Notes: generated by a model not told the origin, from the letters alone. A stretch of 64,000 bases of DNA from an uncultured Alphaproteobacteria bacterium (GCA_964017825.1 CAXHMA010000001.1:193115-257114), one strand, 5' to 3'; positions 21,102 through 59,734 are shown, counted from the first letter of the stretch. Translations and numbers: made by a program.

Positions 21102-21539
21102 ATGAAAGAATTAAACTCGCTTCATAATAAATACCTGAAAGAAGCCGACGCGAAAGAAAAAAATTTCTTCATAACCGCCTTGTGCAGACTGGCCTCCTCT
21201 GATGGTAAAATCAAACCCGAAGAGCTGCAGTATATAGAAGAGCTGGCAGGTGCTGCCGGCATTGAAATCAGACCCGCTTTTTTTAACTGCCCGGACGAAG
21301 TTTTTCTGGAAGAAGCCCGCCGTTTCACAAACCGCAAATTAGCGTTGGCACTGTTAAAACATATGTTTATTCTGGCATATACCGACAATGTTTTTTCCGA
21401 TTCGGAAGGCATATTTATCTGCAAAATTTCCGAGGTTTTAAATATTGAACCGGATAAAGTCCAGGAGATAAGCTCATGGGTAATAGACCGCATCATTTGG
21501 CTCGAACAAGCCGAAAAAATTTTTGAAGAATATGAATAA
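21102..21539 (+). CDS. TerB-like domain protein (tellurite-resistance TerB fold)
   Basis: 'LASSDGKIKPEELQYIEELA … DSEGIFICKISEVLNI' pattern typical of TerB/DjlA-N domains. Confidence 0.6.
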   Translation: MKELNSLHNKYLKEADAKEKNFFITALCRLASSDGKIKPEELQYIEELAGAAGIEIRPAFFNCPDEVFLEEARRFTNRKLALALLKHMFILAYTDNVFSDSEGIFICKISEVLNIEPDKVQEISSWVIDRIIWLEQAEKIFEEYE

Positions 21540-27228: not shown

Positions 27229-27479
27229 ATTATACCTTCATTTTATTATTTCCGGAAACGAGAAGACACGCCGTATAATACCCGTGGATAAAGGCACATA
27301 CATCCTATATTTCAAACATCTTCCGGTGTTTTTGATTATATTCTTCATGATATTGCCTGCAAACAGGCGTATTAGGCAAATTATACCCGCGATGTTCATA
27401 TTTGTCAATATAAACATCAAACCAAACGAAAATGCGAGCTGACACCGCCCGCATTTTCATTTTTTCCATATGGCAATTC

Positions 27480-28871
27480 TTATCTGCCGGCTTTAATCGC
27501 TTCAATCAACTCATGCGTTGTCGGAATATGCCCGTTTGCATAAAGCGGATCCTGCCCGAAACGGTAAACCTGATGCCCCGCAAACAAAAGATTGTCATCA
27601 GTGCTGCCGTTGTGCGAAATGTCAAACAGTGTTTTATGAATGCAATATGTCCGCGGGTCGCAGATCTTCCCTGTCGTTCCCGTCGCACCGGACCACGAAG
27701 AAAACTGGCATTGCGACAAACAACCGAGACATTTCGCCCGATCCTCTTTCATCACCTTCCATTCCTCCGGTGTTAAAAAGACAACCGTGCTGTCCGGCGT
27801 CTCCTGAATAACGGTAAAGCCTGCATTTATCTGATTATTCGCTTTTGCCAAATCGGCAGCCTTGATATAAACCGTCTTGACATTGCTTAAATTCAGCGGC
27901 GTATCATAAACCTCATCAGCTTCTGCTGCATAAGATATTTCTCCTTCTTTGCGCTCCATAAGGCGTGTCAAAAACTTATTTTTAATCGCCGATGAATAAA
28001 AGCCGGTCGGGCTGAAACGCTGTAAGGCGACATCACCCGGTTTCGTATTCAGCATAACTTTCTTCCAAGCATCGCTGATCGGGCTTTCCGTCGTAATCAT
28101 CGGGCGCGTGCCAAACTGGAAAGCGACTTTACCGATTTCCGGATTTTGCAGATAATCAGTCCAATCACTCAAACACCAGACACCGCCGGCAATAATAATC
28201 GGTGTCTCAGTAAGCCCGAGTTTATTCATAACAGCGCGCAATTCCTTAATCCTGTTATACGGATTTTGCGGTTCTTCCGGATTTTCGGCATTTGATAAAC
28301 CGTTATGCCCGCCGGCAAGCCACGGGTCTTCATAGACCACACCGCCCAGAAAATCACTGTAATGCGCATACGAGCGTTTCCAAAGAATTTGAAATGCACG
28401 CGCCGACGAAACAATCGGATAATAATAAACACCATTCTCGGAAGCAATTTCGCCTAACTTATACGGCAAACCGGCCCCGCAGGTAACGCCGTGAATAAGC
28501 CCTTTTGCCCCCTTTAAAACTTCGCGGATAACTGTTTCCGAATCAGCAAGCTCCCACAATTCGTTAACGTGGATTCTGCCGTTATCACCGGCAATTTCAT
28601 GGGCAATCCGCGCCTGTGCAATACCGCCTTTTATGGCGCCGGCAATCAAATCTTCATGCCGTTCCTGCCGCTTAGTACGTGCAGAGCGCTCCAAAACAAC
28701 ATTGCCGGCATTGTCATAGTAATCTGCACTTACCAGCGAAATCGTCCCCACACAGCCTTCTTTGGCAAAATGCCCGCTGCTGCGGCCGTCAGTGCCGTTA
28801 ATGCCTTTTCCGCCTTCAATAATCGGAAACACTTCTTTACCCGAAATTACAACAGTATCTAAATTTATCAC
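27480..28871 (-). CDS. Nitronate monooxygenase (NMO/2-nitropropane dioxygenase-like) family flavoprotein, long form (GTG start)
   Basis: TIM-barrel FMN motifs ('VTCGAGLP', 'IIIAGGVW'). AAGGA RBS before GTG. Confidence 0.65.
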   Translation of the reverse strand: MINLDTVVISGKEVFPIIEGGKGINGTDGRSSGHFAKEGCVGTISLVSADYYDNAGNVVLERSARTKRQERHEDLIAGAIKGGIAQARIAHEIAGDNGRIHVNELWELADSETVIREVLKGAKGLIHGVTCGAGLPYKLGEIASENGVYYYPIVSSARAFQILWKRSYAHYSDFLGGVVYEDPWLAGGHNGLSNAENPEEPQNPYNRIKELRAVMNKLGLTETPIIIAGGVWCLSDWTDYLQNPEIGKVAFQFGTRPMITTESPISDAWKKVMLNTKPGDVALQRFSPTGFYSSAIKNKFLTRLMERKEGEISYAAEADEVYDTPLNLSNVKTVYIKAADLAKANNQINAGFTVIQETPDSTVVFLTPEEWKVMKEDRAKCLGCLSQCQFSSWSGATGTTGKICDPRTYCIHKTLFDISHNGSTDDNLLFAGHQVYRFGQDPLYANGHIPTTHELIEAIKAGR

Positions 28872-28979: not shown

Positions 28980-30446
28980 TCAAAAAGGCTTAAACAATCT
29001 GTCCCATTCCACATTGTTGCTGACAATAAACGCCGCTGCAACGCAACAGTAAGTATATGTAATTAAAGCGTTAATTGTAATACTTCCTATCTGACGCACA
29101 AAAAAATGACGGTATTTTTTAATAACCCGATGCAGAAAATTAAAAAATAAGATATACACAATCAGCTGTCCCGAAATGCCGATACCTGCCAGCGCATTTT
29201 CGTATTCCATGGCAATCCGCGGAAAAAAAGTCATCAGCAGACTGTACAGCATAATCAAAATATACGCTGTGCGCATAGCCCTTTTTTCACTCTGGCGTTT
29301 ATGAATTTTATCTTCCTTCAAACTTTCCTTGGAGAGCTTTCCGACTTCAAACCCGCGGATTTTTTTAGGTTCGGAACTTTTTTCCTTAATGGTTTTCAAG
29401 TTAGATTTCAACCGTTCTTCGGCGACGCATAAGCCGCAGCCCTTATTGGTAAAATACGCATGATTCGGATTCTTTTTACAGGTTTTAATGTTTTTCAGAA
29501 GAAAATCCAGTTCCGCCTGCCACTCTATGGCTGTCGGACGTTTCTGCCCTTTCACGAAAGCACGGTCAAAAAGTTTGAGCGTACTCTGCGGCAAAAAAGC
29601 ATGAATACTGTACGGATGCGGCGCCTGATAATCATCACCCCACATACCGTATGCATAATGGTAATGTTCGATGCGCTCCTGAATGGACAGCGCAGTATCC
29701 GAAGTTTTTTTGACCACGCCCGAAAACGGATGAATACCGTTATTAAGCAATTTAAAAATAATAACCGCCAGAGCAAACTTATCCTGCTCTTCGCCCATTT
29801 CTTCGCAGCCCTGCGTCATCCCCTCGGGATAAATATATTCCTCGCTCACAAACTCTGCCGGAAACCGCGCCTGTTCTCCCTGAATGGAAAAACCGTCGCA
29901 ATCAAAAACCGCCACCGTCATTGTTTTTTTGTAAATGGAAACATTCGCAGGTTTTAAGTCAATAATATAATGTCCGTAGCGGTGCAATGACGCAACCATC
30001 AGCGCCACGTTATATGCCGCCATAACACGGTACTCATACTTGTCGCTTAACCCGAGTTTTGCCCGCACCGCGCTCTGCATTAAATGGTCTAAAGAAACCG
30101 CTTCTTTGGTATTGATAAACGGCATGACATAGCCCACGCAATACCCTTCGTCGTCTTCCAAAACCGCTTCCGGCCACGCAATCTGCACATACTCAACCCC
30201 GCCCGCGGTAACGCTCGGTATTTGCGGGTTATTCATAACCATGGCTTCCAGCTTCAAACGGTTTGTATTGCTTTTTTGCCGTTCATGAAAGATTTTGGCA
30301 ACCTTGGCCGGCTGTCCGGCAATCTCATAAACTTTGCCGGCGGCGCCGCCTTTATTTAAAAGTCCGCCGAGCGTCAGCCGTTCAAAATGTCTGTCCGCAT
30401 AAATGGCATTATAGCTCAAATTTTTCTGTTCCGCAGCTTCGCTCAT
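28980..30446 (-). CDS. Hanks-type Ser/Thr protein kinase-like protein with C-terminal transmembrane helices (TerY-P triad kinase)
   Basis: Gly-loop 'GGAAGKVYEI', Lys 'VAKIF', catalytic loop 'IIDLKPANV', DFG-like 'DCDGF'. ATG overlaps the PP2C stop (ATGA). Confidence 0.8.
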   Translation of the reverse strand: MSEAAEQKNLSYNAIYADRHFERLTLGGLLNKGGAAGKVYEIAGQPAKVAKIFHERQKSNTNRLKLEAMVMNNPQIPSVTAGGVEYVQIAWPEAVLEDDEGYCVGYVMPFINTKEAVSLDHLMQSAVRAKLGLSDKYEYRVMAAYNVALMVASLHRYGHYIIDLKPANVSIYKKTMTVAVFDCDGFSIQGEQARFPAEFVSEEYIYPEGMTQGCEEMGEEQDKFALAVIIFKLLNNGIHPFSGVVKKTSDTALSIQERIEHYHYAYGMWGDDYQAPHPYSIHAFLPQSTLKLFDRAFVKGQKRPTAIEWQAELDFLLKNIKTCKKNPNHAYFTNKGCGLCVAEERLKSNLKTIKEKSSEPKKIRGFEVGKLSKESLKEDKIHKRQSEKRAMRTAYILIMLYSLLMTFFPRIAMEYENALAGIGISGQLIVYILFFNFLHRVIKKYRHFFVRQIGSITINALITYTYCCVAAAFIVSNNVEWDRLFKPF

Positions 30447-31216
30447 TGCAGTCCTGCCCATAAAAACGTTTTGTCATCCGAATTGAGCCTGCAGGCTTTT
30501 TGTGCATTCAGCGTATTGTTAAGAGCCTTAAGCGCACGTTCTCTGTCAGGCTCGTCGTTGAGATACCGGTTAATCGGCTCGATGAACCCTTTTTTAAGCC
30601 GATGAAAATCATCCGACAGCGCAAAATTAGTTACCCCGTCCGTCATCAAAAACAAAGCGCTTGCCTTTTCAAATTTTGTAAACCGCAGACATTCTGTCCA
30701 GTTCTTCATCGTATAAAAATATGTCTCGCAGGAAAAATTTCCGTTTGCCGGCCGCGACAATGTATAGTCGGTATAGTTTTCAGCACCGTGCAGAGCGATT
30801 CCCGCCCCGTCTCCGATATGAAAAAACACGCCGTTTTTCTTATGACAGACCACGCCGACAACCGTCGCCGAAAAATTCAATATTTCTTCTTCTCTTTTAC
30901 TTTTGTTCAGCCTGTGAATGAGCAGCCTTTCGCGCACCGATTCTATCACCCGCACCACAGCCGGTTCCACATCTTTTAACGGCGTATTAATCAAAGTATT
31001 GACCAACGCTTCGCAAATCATTTTCGCACCGATTTTACCGTATTTGGCAGAGCCGGCACCATCAGAAACCACGGCCGCCAATTTATTGCCCGAACAGGCA
31101 TATTGATAAAAATCCTGACACGGAAGTTTCTTTGCCGTATGCAGCCCCCCCGTCAGTTTTGTCGCGATAACCCTTATGTTTTTAGGCTTCCTCTTCATTC
31201 CAGCCCTCAATGTCAT
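30443..31216 (-). CDS. PP2C-family Ser/Thr phosphatase (TerY-P triad phosphatase)
   Basis: 'VVSDGAGSAKYG' and 'FLMTDGVTNF' metal-binding motifs. Confidence 0.8.
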   Translation of the reverse strand: MTLRAGMKRKPKNIRVIATKLTGGLHTAKKLPCQDFYQYACSGNKLAAVVSDGAGSAKYGKIGAKMICEALVNTLINTPLKDVEPAVVRVIESVRERLLIHRLNKSKREEEILNFSATVVGVVCHKKNGVFFHIGDGAGIALHGAENYTDYTLSRPANGNFSCETYFYTMKNWTECLRFTKFEKASALFLMTDGVTNFALSDDFHRLKKGFIEPINRYLNDEPDRERALKALNNTLNAQKACRLNSDDKTFLWAGLQ

Positions 31217-31880
31217 CCAATATGTCAGGCATATTCGGCGCCGCGCGGGAAATGCATGAAACGCTGCGCGACAACCACAGGAAAAACTCCGTAAACTTTA
31301 ACCCGCTCAAACGCTTCGGCGACATCAGCGAAAACTTCGCAAGTTTATCCAAATTGGCCCCCTGCGTTCCAACGGCATGAATAACCACCTTCTTGTTTTG
31401 CTGCGCCTCGCGGCATTTTGCCGCCGCCTGTTCCCAGCCGTAATCCGTCGGTTCACCGTCGCTGATTAAAAAAATCCATGGCCGCTTTGAGGTAATACCG
31501 CAGCTGTCATACAAACATTTTTGTTCTTCAATTTTTTGCAGCGCCAGTTCCATGGCTTTACCGATAGGCGAAAGCCCCGAAGCCTCCATAACAGGTGCCG
31601 AAAAATTCATTGCGTCAATCCAATCTGCGGAAATCTCAGCATCGTCTTTACCGTAAGCTTTAATCACCAAAAGCTGAACGCGCGAACTTGCGTCAATATC
31701 TTCTTTGAGCTCTTTCTCCAACGCCTGCAAACCGGTATTCAGCTGCTTTATCGGTTCACCGCGCATAGACCCCGAACAGTCCAAAACCAAAATACACGGT
31801 GTCCGCTCATTGGCATTTTCCGCAAATTCCACATACGGAATCATGACATCCGAAAAATCATCATTGCTGCTTTTATCCAT
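31182..31880 (-). CDS. von Willebrand factor A domain protein (TerY-like)
   Basis: MIDAS 'VLDCSGSM'. 'ISDGEPTD'. Overlaps the PP2C gene start. Confidence 0.8.
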   Translation of the reverse strand: MDKSSNDDFSDVMIPYVEFAENANERTPCILVLDCSGSMRGEPIKQLNTGLQALEKELKEDIDASSRVQLLVIKAYGKDDAEISADWIDAMNFSAPVMEASGLSPIGKAMELALQKIEEQKCLYDSCGITSKRPWIFLISDGEPTDYGWEQAAAKCREAQQNKKVVIHAVGTQGANLDKLAKFSLMSPKRLSGLKFTEFFLWLSRSVSCISRAAPNMPDILDDIEGWNEEEA

Positions 31881-32141
31881 TTATATATCCTTCTAATGCT
31901 GTATCGCCAAATTAATATCGGGGATATGTGTGCGGATACCCGCTGCCCTCAACCGGCACATTGGCGGAAACCCTACCGCACCCGCTTATATATAGAATGG
32001 AAAAAAATACTGAAAAAATCATTAAAAATTTAACTAAATATTTCATTTTTTACCCTATGTATTGCAATAACACTGGTTTAAATATATATCAAACGCTCAG
32101 AATGTACAAAGCTCAATCACTTTATTAACAGGAAAAAAATC

Positions 32142-32675
32142 ATGGCTTTATTATACCGCTTGCTCGTTCTCTTGCTTTTTATCTCTTTTAACGCCGCGGC
32201 ATACAGCGGTCCCAAAGGCTTATACACGCTGCAATATCCGGTTGATATGCCCAATGTCGCCCTGACATCCGAAACCGGAAAAGAAATATCTTATTTAAAC
32301 ACATCGGCTGATTTGACCATCATGATTTTTTGGTCACAAAGCTGCGCCCCCTGCCTGCGCGAAATGAAAGCATTGGAAAAATTCTATCCCGTGGCAGCCA
32401 AAGACAATATCCGCGTTATGCTCGTTTCGCCGGCATCGGAATGGAACAGCAATGAGGAAGAGCGCAAGTTCCTCACAAAATTCGGCGCGCCGACCCTCCC
32501 GTTTTATAACGACAATAACAACAAACTGTCATTAAGCCTCGGCATCGGCTCAACCCCGTACACCGTCATCATGAACAAACACGGCAAAAAAGTTGCCACC
32601 ATTCAGGGCGAAGCAAACTGGTCTTCGGAAAAGCTTTATAAGATGATTAAGAAGCTGATGAACTCGGAAAGTTAA
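32142..32675 (+). CDS. TlpA/ResA-like periplasmic thiol-disulfide oxidoreductase (thioredoxin fold)
   Basis: Signal peptide. 'WSQSCAPCLRE' CxxC motif. Confidence 0.75.
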   Translation: MALLYRLLVLLLFISFNAAAYSGPKGLYTLQYPVDMPNVALTSETGKEISYLNTSADLTIMIFWSQSCAPCLREMKALEKFYPVAAKDNIRVMLVSPASEWNSNEEERKFLTKFGAPTLPFYNDNNNKLSLSLGIGSTPYTVIMNKHGKKVATIQGEANWSSEKLYKMIKKLMNSES

Positions 32676-45326: not shown

Positions 45327-45345
45327 GATAGATTATATAATAAAC

Positions 45346-45508
45346 GGACTGCCCTTCGCGTATTGAACCGCATATCTTCCGGGCCAACACTACTTAATAG
45401 GGAGCTGTCTCTGTCAGAATCGTGGTTCTGTTATATGGCGCCCACCTTATCTTGCGGGTATCGGAAAGAATGATACATATACGGTCCGGGCGGTCCGCCT
45501 CATATTTT
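45346..45508 (+). ncRNA. ssrS: Candidate 6S RNA (ssrS) downstream of zapA
   Basis: 5' GGACUGCCC pairs with 3' GGGCGGUCC, enclosing ~130 nt, followed by a U-run. Position matches the conserved zapA-ssrS synteny. Confidence 0.4.
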
Positions 45509-49825: not shown

Positions 49826-49899
49826 TGGAGCGGGTGAAGGGAATCGAACCCTCGTCATAAGCTTGGAAGGCTTCTGCTCTACCATTGAGCTACACCCGC
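49826..49899 (-). tRNA. tRNA-Gly (anticodon UCC)
   Basis: GCGGGTGTAGCTCAATGGTAGAGC…CTTCCAA…GGTTCGATTCC…CACCCGCTCCA. Close to E. coli glyT. Confidence 0.85.
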
Positions 49900-49948
49900 T
49901 CAAACCAAACATCCTGAAACAAAAACCTATTTATCAAGACGATTTTAA

Positions 49949-50034
49949 CTGGTGGAGGGGGATGGATTCGAACCATCGTAGACTAAAGTCGACGGATTTA
50001 CAGTCCGTTGCATTTGACCGCTCTGCCACCCCTC
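49949..50034 (-). tRNA. tRNA-Tyr (anticodon GUA), long variable arm
   Basis: GGAGGGGTGGCAGAGCGG…ACGGA-CTGTAAA-TCCGT…GGTTCGAATCC…CCCCTCCACCA. Confidence 0.85.
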
Positions 50035-50191
50035 CGCAAAAATCGCACGCGAGGGAAAAAGAACAATGTCTTTCAACCTGACAAAAGGAATAAAAACTTA
50101 TTTTTCCGATAATGTCAACAAGTTTTTTATCAATTATTAAAGTTTTTTTTGATAACTTTTATTTATTCGGCAATTTGAAGGAGATGCGCCC

Positions 50192-59643: not shown

Positions 59644-59734
<91 letters not shown>

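Follow-up and report, generated by a model that had tools for sequence, protein, structure and literature searches.

The 64,000-nucleotide (nt) stretch of DNA considered here, hereafter the window (GCA_964017825.1 CAXHMA010000001.1:193115-257114; all coordinates refer to it), comes from an uncultured Alphaproteobacteria bacterium and harbors three consecutive minus-strand open reading frames (ORFs) encoding a vWA-domain protein, a PP2C phosphatase and a membrane-anchored Ser/Thr kinase. We report on the structure, distribution and probable role of this triad, which resembles the TerY-P cassettes and the YegL-PphC-YegI proteins of Escherichia coli. All three Pfam domains were recovered above gathering score, namely VWA (E-value 1.9e-6, 28.7 bits for a cut-off of 23.8), PP2C_2 (1.6e-36) and Pkinase (4e-8, 33.4 bits for a cut-off of 31.7), confirming the three co-directional genes that had been proposed from the sequence alone (the sequence-only reading).

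The same reading had placed an ATGA stop-start overlap between the phosphatase and kinase genes, as indeed observed: the PP2C stop codon TGA and the kinase start at 30446 share ATGA, AGGA precedes this start, and the public gene call (P0001, 488 amino acids, 100% identity) begins at the same site. The longest kinase ORF, of 493 amino acids, was also looked up and gave no match, the 488-residue form being the one on record. On the contrary, the announced 35-nt overlap of the vWA and PP2C genes holds only for the longest PP2C ORF, which starts at 31216. The better start is the ATG at 31198, which follows GAGGG, is used in the public call and is kept in orthologues, 18 of which present no ATG upstream of it; from this start the gene overlaps the vWA gene by 17 nt. 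This overlap measures 11-20 nt in all 76 related genomes and in most of these genomes the PP2C and kinase genes meet at -4, -1 or +1, so that tight coupling is a conserved property and not a chance feature of the window. By their arrangement, the genes form a tightly coupled vWA/PP2C/membrane kinase operon, in agreement with the translationally coupled unit initially suggested.

The distribution of the triad was studied in genomes chosen through the neighboring NMO gene, of which 229 species-representative genomes encode a relative; the best 80 were retrieved. Without exception they are uncultured Alphaproteobacteria from gut or rumen, with various erroneous labels (Acetobacter, Azospirillum or Rickettsiales), and the record titles of relatives name the human, rodent and ruminant gut, as expected from the host association that had been suspected. 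At 76 of the 76 loci with enough upstream sequence, NMO is immediately adjacent to the kinase, PP2C and vWA genes, the remaining four of the 80 ending at contig ends. An independent sample was obtained by scanning metagenomes with a DNA pattern for GSGYPHxYP, a motif of the small lipoprotein encoded at the head of the operon, which retrieved 36 true lipoprotein ORFs. There, vWA was found directly downstream of the lipoprotein at 32/33 loci with at least 750 nt of downstream sequence and the full triad at 20/20 with at least 3.1 kb, whereas NMO was present at 14/16 with at least 4.8 kb; a divergent redoxin gene occurred at 26/26 loci with at least 900 nt upstream. The triad is thus core, being present at 76/76 genome loci and 20/20 metagenome loci. 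Core conservation lacking any accessory distribution is the very pattern that the sequence-only reading had named as its own refutation.

Across the sampled loci, identity to the window ranges from 80 to 97% for vWA, from 50 to 85% for the kinase and from 48 to 79% for PP2C, and the corresponding figures are 66-90% for NMO and 29-77% for the redoxin. In pairwise comparisons of 22 genomes of the near clade, triad divergence closely follows that of the flanking MiaB, FolD, DedA and YggT (Spearman 0.92, Pearson 0.96); relative to this flank, rates are 0.30 for vWA, 0.88 for the kinase and 1.0 for PP2C. The composition of the triad is native, since its GC content, third-position GC content and synonymous codon choice fall within 1.5 standard deviations of the 52 genes of the window. 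The neighbors are housekeeping genes (FolD, MiaB, PhoH, YggT, DedA, an M20 peptidase, a [FeFe]-hydrogenase-like protein and a subtilase), and the genes outside the block all differ between the near and the far clade. Fixed presence, synteny, co-divergence and composition therefore indicate that the triad is vertically inherited in this lineage and is not an accessory island; its plausible horizontal acquisition, as first envisaged, was not borne out. Recent horizontal transfer was discarded on composition, synteny and co-divergence. Movement of the five-gene block as a cassette was discarded for the near clade only, where divergence tracks genes outside the block.

The vWA gene is the most conserved gene of the neighborhood and is under strong purifying selection. 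Over 76 species, invariance of at least 98% is seen at 67% of its positions, compared to 48% for NMO. In the near clade its median identity is 93%, higher than that of NMO (87%), MiaB (84%) and FolD (66%); in the far clade vWA still stands at 82.5%, and NMO at 68%. That it outranks nearby tRNA-modification and folate enzymes points to a key functional component.

The metal ion-dependent adhesion site (MIDAS) motif of the vWA protein is intact (D34-x-S36-x-S38, S/T104, D141): among 29-76 orthologues D34, S36, S38 and D141 never vary, and either S or T occupies position 104. It is a predicted cytosolic protein of the TerY/YegL type. The AlphaFold2 model adopts a vWA fold (predicted local distance difference test score 78.6), and its best PDB matches are MIDAS I-domains, namely those of CMG2, TEM8, integrin alpha-M and TFIIH p44, while the archaeal ArnAB structure (8s05) is also among the structural matches. 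In archaea, ArnA/ArnB and ArnC/ArnD constitute a phospho-dependent regulatory complex involved in archaellum regulation. The likeness is a functional analogy only: a cytosolic vWA protein works there with Hanks-type kinases and a phosphatase, as may be the case here, but only the vWA fold is common, no FHA partner accompanies the triad, and gene organisation and domain of life differ. The C-terminal 25 residues of the vWA protein are predicted to be disordered, yet they are conserved (WLSRSVSC.S.AAPN...GW.E), and this Ser-rich tail, which ends in GW, aligns with the tail of E. coli YegL.

The metal-binding Asp residues of the phosphatase are all kept (D29, D46, D130, D187 and D241/242). Similarly, the kinase domain retains its glycine loop, K51, the D163-L-K-P-x-N168 catalytic loop, D222 and R303, with the DFG motif replaced by D182-C-D184, and it is followed by a CHCC zinc-ribbon-like motif (C323-x5-H329-x7-C337-x2-C340). 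K51, D163, N168, D182, D184, C323, H329, C337 and C340 are invariant among 76-77 orthologues. After the zinc ribbon come a charged helical linker and three hydrophobic segments (about 393-414, 417-440 and 456-476), modelled as helices by AlphaFold2 and present in 70/77 orthologues, which substantiates the C-terminal transmembrane (TM) helices noticed in the sequence-only reading. The net charges of the segments flanking these helices (+4, -1, +5 and 0) fit a three-TM topology with the N-terminus inside and about 10 residues on the periplasmic side, so that the kinase would possess no sensor domain of its own. In the TM region hydrophobicity is conserved, the sequence hardly at all. Pfam detected no domain besides Pkinase, and no oligonucleotide/oligosaccharide-binding (OB) fold at the C-terminus. 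The best PDB match of the AlphaFold2 model of the kinase is PknB, while a PDB sequence search with the three triad proteins returned no relatives. The kinase family is large, with 661 cluster representatives at E <= 1e-30; nearly all of them match at about residues 22-350 and have very variable C-terminal parts, a match that extends across the TM tail being confined to the cluster of the lineage itself.

The three proteins are homologous to those of the E. coli triad: vWA shares 41% identity with YegL over the full length (E-value 2e-50), PP2C 25% with PphC/YegK (3e-13) and the kinase 30% with YegI, Cys/His motif included (6e-31). In addition, vWA is about 31% identical to TerY of the ter operons found on IncHI-type or large enterobacterial plasmids. 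The term "TerY-P-like" is therefore correct, and the domain order recognised at the start stands. E. coli YegI is an active kinase that depends on Mn/Mg, autophosphorylates and has DSD where DFG is usual; it crosses the inner membrane twice and lacks an extracytoplasmic domain. In E. coli B strains, pphC and yegI also share an ATGA overlap (10.1101/819920, 10.1101/303594). YegI is dephosphorylated by PphC in vitro (10.1101/303594, 10.1101/819920). The E. coli genes are chromosomal in 5417 of 5426 complete genomes. Thus, both triads agree in proteins, gene order and phosphatase/kinase overlap, in a membrane-anchored kinase with a zinc-ribbon motif, a DxD in place of DFG (DCD in the window) and no extracytoplasmic sensor domain, and in being chromosomal and essentially core in their own group. 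They differ in kinase length (488 amino acids in the window, 648 in YegI) and TM layout, with three helices at the extreme C-terminus of the window kinase compared to two passes followed by a cytoplasmic C-terminal region in YegI. The catalytic loop is also more canonical in the window kinase (D-L-K-P-x-N against G-D-x-x-Q-x-S). The upstream lipoprotein gene and the paired TlpA-like redoxin are found only in the window, whereas the yegD neighbor of the E. coli triad is absent there. This yegD gene (Hsp70-like) follows the E. coli triad (L007: 7675-9027), and a gene for a J-domain protein follows a triad on a Cupriavidus plasmid (L090: 8788-10242). TerY-P triads may have a recurrent association with chaperones, of which none was seen in the window.

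A TerY-P triad comprises a TerY-like vWA protein, a PP2C phosphatase and a kinase with a C-terminal zinc ribbon (Anantharaman et al., 2012, as summarised in PMC11090510 and PMC4978471). The cassettes associated with Ter genes and with CoCoNuT or type IV restriction systems have this same composition (Bell et al., 2024, PMC11090510). They sit beside Ter genes, McrBC-like or HEPN nucleases and FtsK/WXG100 modules and behave as accessory elements or islands (PMC4978471, PMC11090510), whereas the window triad is flanked by housekeeping genes and fixed in its lineage, and the zinc ribbon of its kinase is followed by TM helices. The features of the locus are collected in Table 1.

Table 1. Genes and putative signals of the triad locus (coordinates on the 64,000-nt window).
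Feature	Position	Strand	Description	Basis
vWA gene	31182-31880	-	232 amino acids	Pfam VWA
PP2C gene	30443-31198	-	251 amino acids, PphC/YegK-like	Pfam PP2C_2
Kinase gene	28980-30446	-	488 amino acids, YegI-like	Pfam Pkinase
Lipoprotein gene, unannotated	31912-32046	-	44 amino acids, first gene of the operon, directly upstream of vWA	
Redoxin gene	32142-32675	+	177 amino acids, TlpA/ResA-like periplasmic thiol:disulfide oxidoreductase, divergent from the operon	
NMO gene	27480-28871	-	463 amino acids, flavoenzyme, 108 nt downstream of the kinase gene	Pfam NMO
Promoter-like site, TGTACA-16-TATATT	32081-32108	-	upstream of the lipoprotein ORF	consensus scan
Intrinsic-terminator-like hairpin	27424-27462	-	16-bp stem and U-rich tail, after NMO	terminator scan
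TerB-domain gene	21102-21539	+	145 amino acids, 7.4 kb from the triad	Pfam TerB (E-value 7.2e-11)

The small gene at the head of the operon was spotted by aligning the regions upstream of the vWA gene, which are strongly conserved. Its product (MKYLVKFLMIFSVFFSILYISGCGRVSANVPVEGSGYPHTYPRY) is composed of a signal peptide, a lipobox (ISGC) and a mature peptide of 22 residues (CGRVSANVPVEGSGYPHTYPRY). An equivalent ORF is present at 75/75 related loci, where it either overlaps the vWA start or stops 1-66 nt short of it, and in the far clade the spacing leaves no room for a separate promoter. Its entropies at codon positions 1, 2 and 3 amount to 0.73, 0.56 and 1.48 bits, and 71 distinct nucleotide cores encode only 18 core peptides in which YPHxYP is invariant; it is therefore a real coding gene under purifying selection and, on this evidence, one newly recognised here. 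A protein-database search with the 44 residues yielded no more than 9 hits, as ORFs of this size are seldom called. A comparable lipoprotein gene is missing ahead of the E. coli, Azospirillum and Cupriavidus triads. The sole exception among the metagenome loci (L129, 29-1467) belongs to a higher-GC organism in which the lipoprotein gene immediately precedes lysA (TIGR01048, 470 bits) and a triad is absent.

None of the lipoprotein peptides reaches the cut-off of a curated family. The most frequent sub-threshold match is LptM (NF047847 for 22 and PF13627 for 7 of 33 peptides; best E-values 6e-4 and 0.0018), and an HHalign comparison with E. coli LptM gave a probability of 80% that covers the signal peptide and CG only. 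LptM (YifL) is also a small lipoprotein with a Gly after the lipid-modified Cys, although the invariant GYPHxYP is not in the E. coli protein; E. coli lptM adjoins dapF, as the triad-less relative adjoins lysA. LptM promotes the oxidative maturation of LptD and is synthetically lethal with dsbC (PMC10567701). It is thus tied to periplasmic disulfide chemistry (PMC10567701), and the fixed neighbor of the window operon is a thiol:disulfide oxidoreductase. The small lipoprotein would probably be LptM-like.

This oxidoreductase, the redoxin, has a signal peptide and a CxxC motif (CAPC) and matches Pfam Thioredoxin_8, AhpC-TSA and Redoxin, with NCBIfam TlpA and ResA matches below cut-off. It evolves fast, and is present at every locus of the NMO-based sample with sequence upstream of vWA. 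At one locus (L052, 1544-7121) the redoxin-triad block is inverted relative to NMO with its adjacency kept; the redoxin and the operon therefore move together. The NMO flavoenzyme has a Cys-rich C-terminal region (C-x-G-C-x3-C) and matches FabK weakly (29 bits for a cut-off of 453). It is adjacent at 79/79 genome loci with sequence upstream of NMO, in a set that was itself chosen through NMO, and appears as a frequent, non-obligatory neighbor. It may be co-transcribed, no terminator or structured element having been detected between the kinase gene and NMO (z-score +0.46).

We favor, with moderate confidence, the view that the operon of the window is a Ser/Thr phospho-switch of the YegL-PphC-YegI (TerY-P) type that is borne on the chromosome, transmitted vertically, fixed in this gut lineage and devoted to housekeeping or physiological signalling rather than to mobile defence. 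A phosphorylation-based signalling module, one of the roles first put forward, is indeed plausible. The kinase would reside in the inner membrane through its three helices, sensor-less and with few periplasmic residues, and its cytoplasmic Hanks domain would autophosphorylate and then phosphorylate one or more targets. Its most probable target would be the co-translated vWA protein, perhaps at the Ser-rich C-terminal tail, a candidate phospho-acceptor. PP2C may reset the switch, by analogy with the action of PphC on YegI in vitro. Through its MIDAS, the vWA protein could bind a highly conserved cellular partner and so produce the output, acting as substrate, output adaptor or both. The overlapping stop and start codons would hold the three proteins at a fixed stoichiometry. 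As for the input, a small, probably LptM-like lipoprotein heads the operon and a TlpA-like redoxin is always paired with it, so that cell-envelope state would be the probable signal; these companions suggest an envelope-related input, which is the weaker part of the proposal because the lipoprotein family exists without the triad and the periplasmic residues of the kinase are poorly conserved.

Several observations weigh against this interpretation. The lipoprotein family also occurs without the triad, and its adjacency in the window may therefore reflect no more than synteny. Conservation is high in the lipoprotein peptide and poor in the periplasmic loops of the kinase, which disfavors a specific contact between peptide and loops. 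Core conservation is formally compatible with an immune role, and genomes lacking the whole block would escape samples anchored on NMO or on the lipoprotein. Moreover, neither a physiological role nor substrates are known for the E. coli triad (PMC13232886).

The favored phospho-switch matters since TerY-P triads are catalogued under anti-phage or stress functions, whereas the present one is fixed, syntenic and slow-evolving across at least 76 gut Alphaproteobacteria species. At least one branch of the TerY-P family is thus argued to perform housekeeping signalling, and caution is warranted before every vWA-PP2C-kinase triad is taken for a defence system. Its constant company of lipoprotein and redoxin further provides a testable hypothesis for the input signal.

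A more restrictive explanation, which we deem unlikely while granting it some weight, retains a housekeeping phospho-switch with a cytoplasmic target and holds the lipoprotein, redoxin and NMO genes to be unrelated to it, kept alongside because breakpoints are rare in a compact segment of 5-6 kb. The lipoprotein gene beside lysA without a triad would agree with this, in a diaminopimelate/lysine-gene context like that of E. coli lptM, as would the absence of NMO from two of 16 independently sampled loci and the triads of E. coli, Azospirillum and Cupriavidus that have no upstream lipoprotein. However, it accounts poorly for a lipoprotein ORF that abuts or overlaps the vWA start at 75/75 loci with no room for a separate promoter in the far clade, for a redoxin that was retained at 26/26 loci of the independent sample and shares the inversion of the triad at L052, and for the difference between the two clades in all genes beyond the block.

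The opposite extension is doubtful in our eyes. Here the triad would serve as the cytoplasmic part of an operon for envelope surveillance, lineage-wide and possibly essential, in which an LptM-like outer-membrane lipoprotein with its invariant GYPHxYP peptide and the TlpA-like oxidoreductase would report on the oxidative assembly of the outer membrane or of the lipopolysaccharide translocon to the sensor-less three-TM kinase, which in turn would switch the exceptionally conserved MIDAS vWA adaptor on a core machine. If true, this would be the first physiological, non-defence function for TerY-P/YegLKI triads and would link Ser/Thr signalling to envelope biogenesis.

Anti-phage defence, which the sequence-only reading had put forward, would have infection trigger the kinase/phosphatase/vWA switch and lead to growth arrest or cell protection. 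The homology and identical gene order of TerY-P triads speak for it. A stand-alone TerY-P variant with an OB-fold in its kinase, of the same three-gene composition as the window triad, is reported as anti-phage by Gao et al. (2020) (PMC11090510, PMC7699616), with activity against T7-like phages (PMC7699616, PMC11090510). Yet the validated systems carry this OB-fold at the kinase C-terminus (PMC11090510), where the window kinase has a zinc ribbon and TM helices. Plasmid-borne relatives also favor defence, the same three-gene cassette being found on them among genes for GIY-YIG nucleases, DNA methyltransferases or transposases; the 54 plasmid records that match, mostly megaplasmids, all remain at or below 35% identity, and no close relative of the triad was found on plasmids. 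PADLOC detected no TerY-P or other defence system in the triad with E-values up to 10, apart from weak kinase-level matches to the PD-T4-6, MkoA and PglW models, and none among ten neighbors, whose sole matches were a generic one to a subtilase and a marginal one to BrxP. The E. coli YegL/PphC/YegI control was negative too, and this result therefore carries little weight, the models being narrow or absent. It also stands against defence that the triad is fixed at one locus in every sampled genome and co-diverges with housekeeping genes, and that its vWA is more conserved than MiaB or NMO, whereas defence genes are typically patchy, like the type of Gao et al. (2020), and fast-evolving. The only "phage" match is probably a misfiled record: MT836238.1 (L088, "UNVERIFIED: Bacteriophage sp."), an 11.7-kb scaffold from human faeces, carries the same redoxin-vWA-PP2C-kinase-NMO block and for this reason is probably a bacterial contig filed as viral. 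Given the core distribution, slow rate, housekeeping context and lack of an OB-fold, a defence role is improbable.

A Ter-type module against metal, tellurite or xenobiotic stress, in which vWA would sense metal through its MIDAS and signal with a nearby TerB-domain protein, is very improbable: it can invoke the resemblance of vWA to ter-operon TerY, the TerB-domain gene 7.4 kb away and the metal-sensing phospho-switch hypothesised for TerY-P by Anantharaman et al. (2012, as cited in PMC11090510), but vWA is nearer to YegL (41%) than to TerY (31%), no match to TerZ, TerA, TerC, TerD, TerE or TerF emerged from the neighboring genes of the triad, to which this search was confined, and the TerB-domain gene is confined to the near clade whereas the triad is universal. 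This gene, found at 18 of 28 near-clade loci with about 51% identity, qualifies the initial statement that the triad lies far from any other ter gene: one is closer than was thought, but it does lie outside the operon.

Regarding transcription, the promoter-like site upstream of the lipoprotein ORF is not by itself above shuffle expectation, and its -35/-10-like blocks are conserved in 27 near-clade upstream regions; transcription of the unit probably starts there and probably ends at the strong terminator-like hairpin after NMO. Elsewhere in the window, Rfam identified a 6S RNA gene (45343-45500, plus strand) and four tRNA genes (1539-1621, 49829-50035 and 59647-59734, minus strand), which are ordinary chromosomal features.

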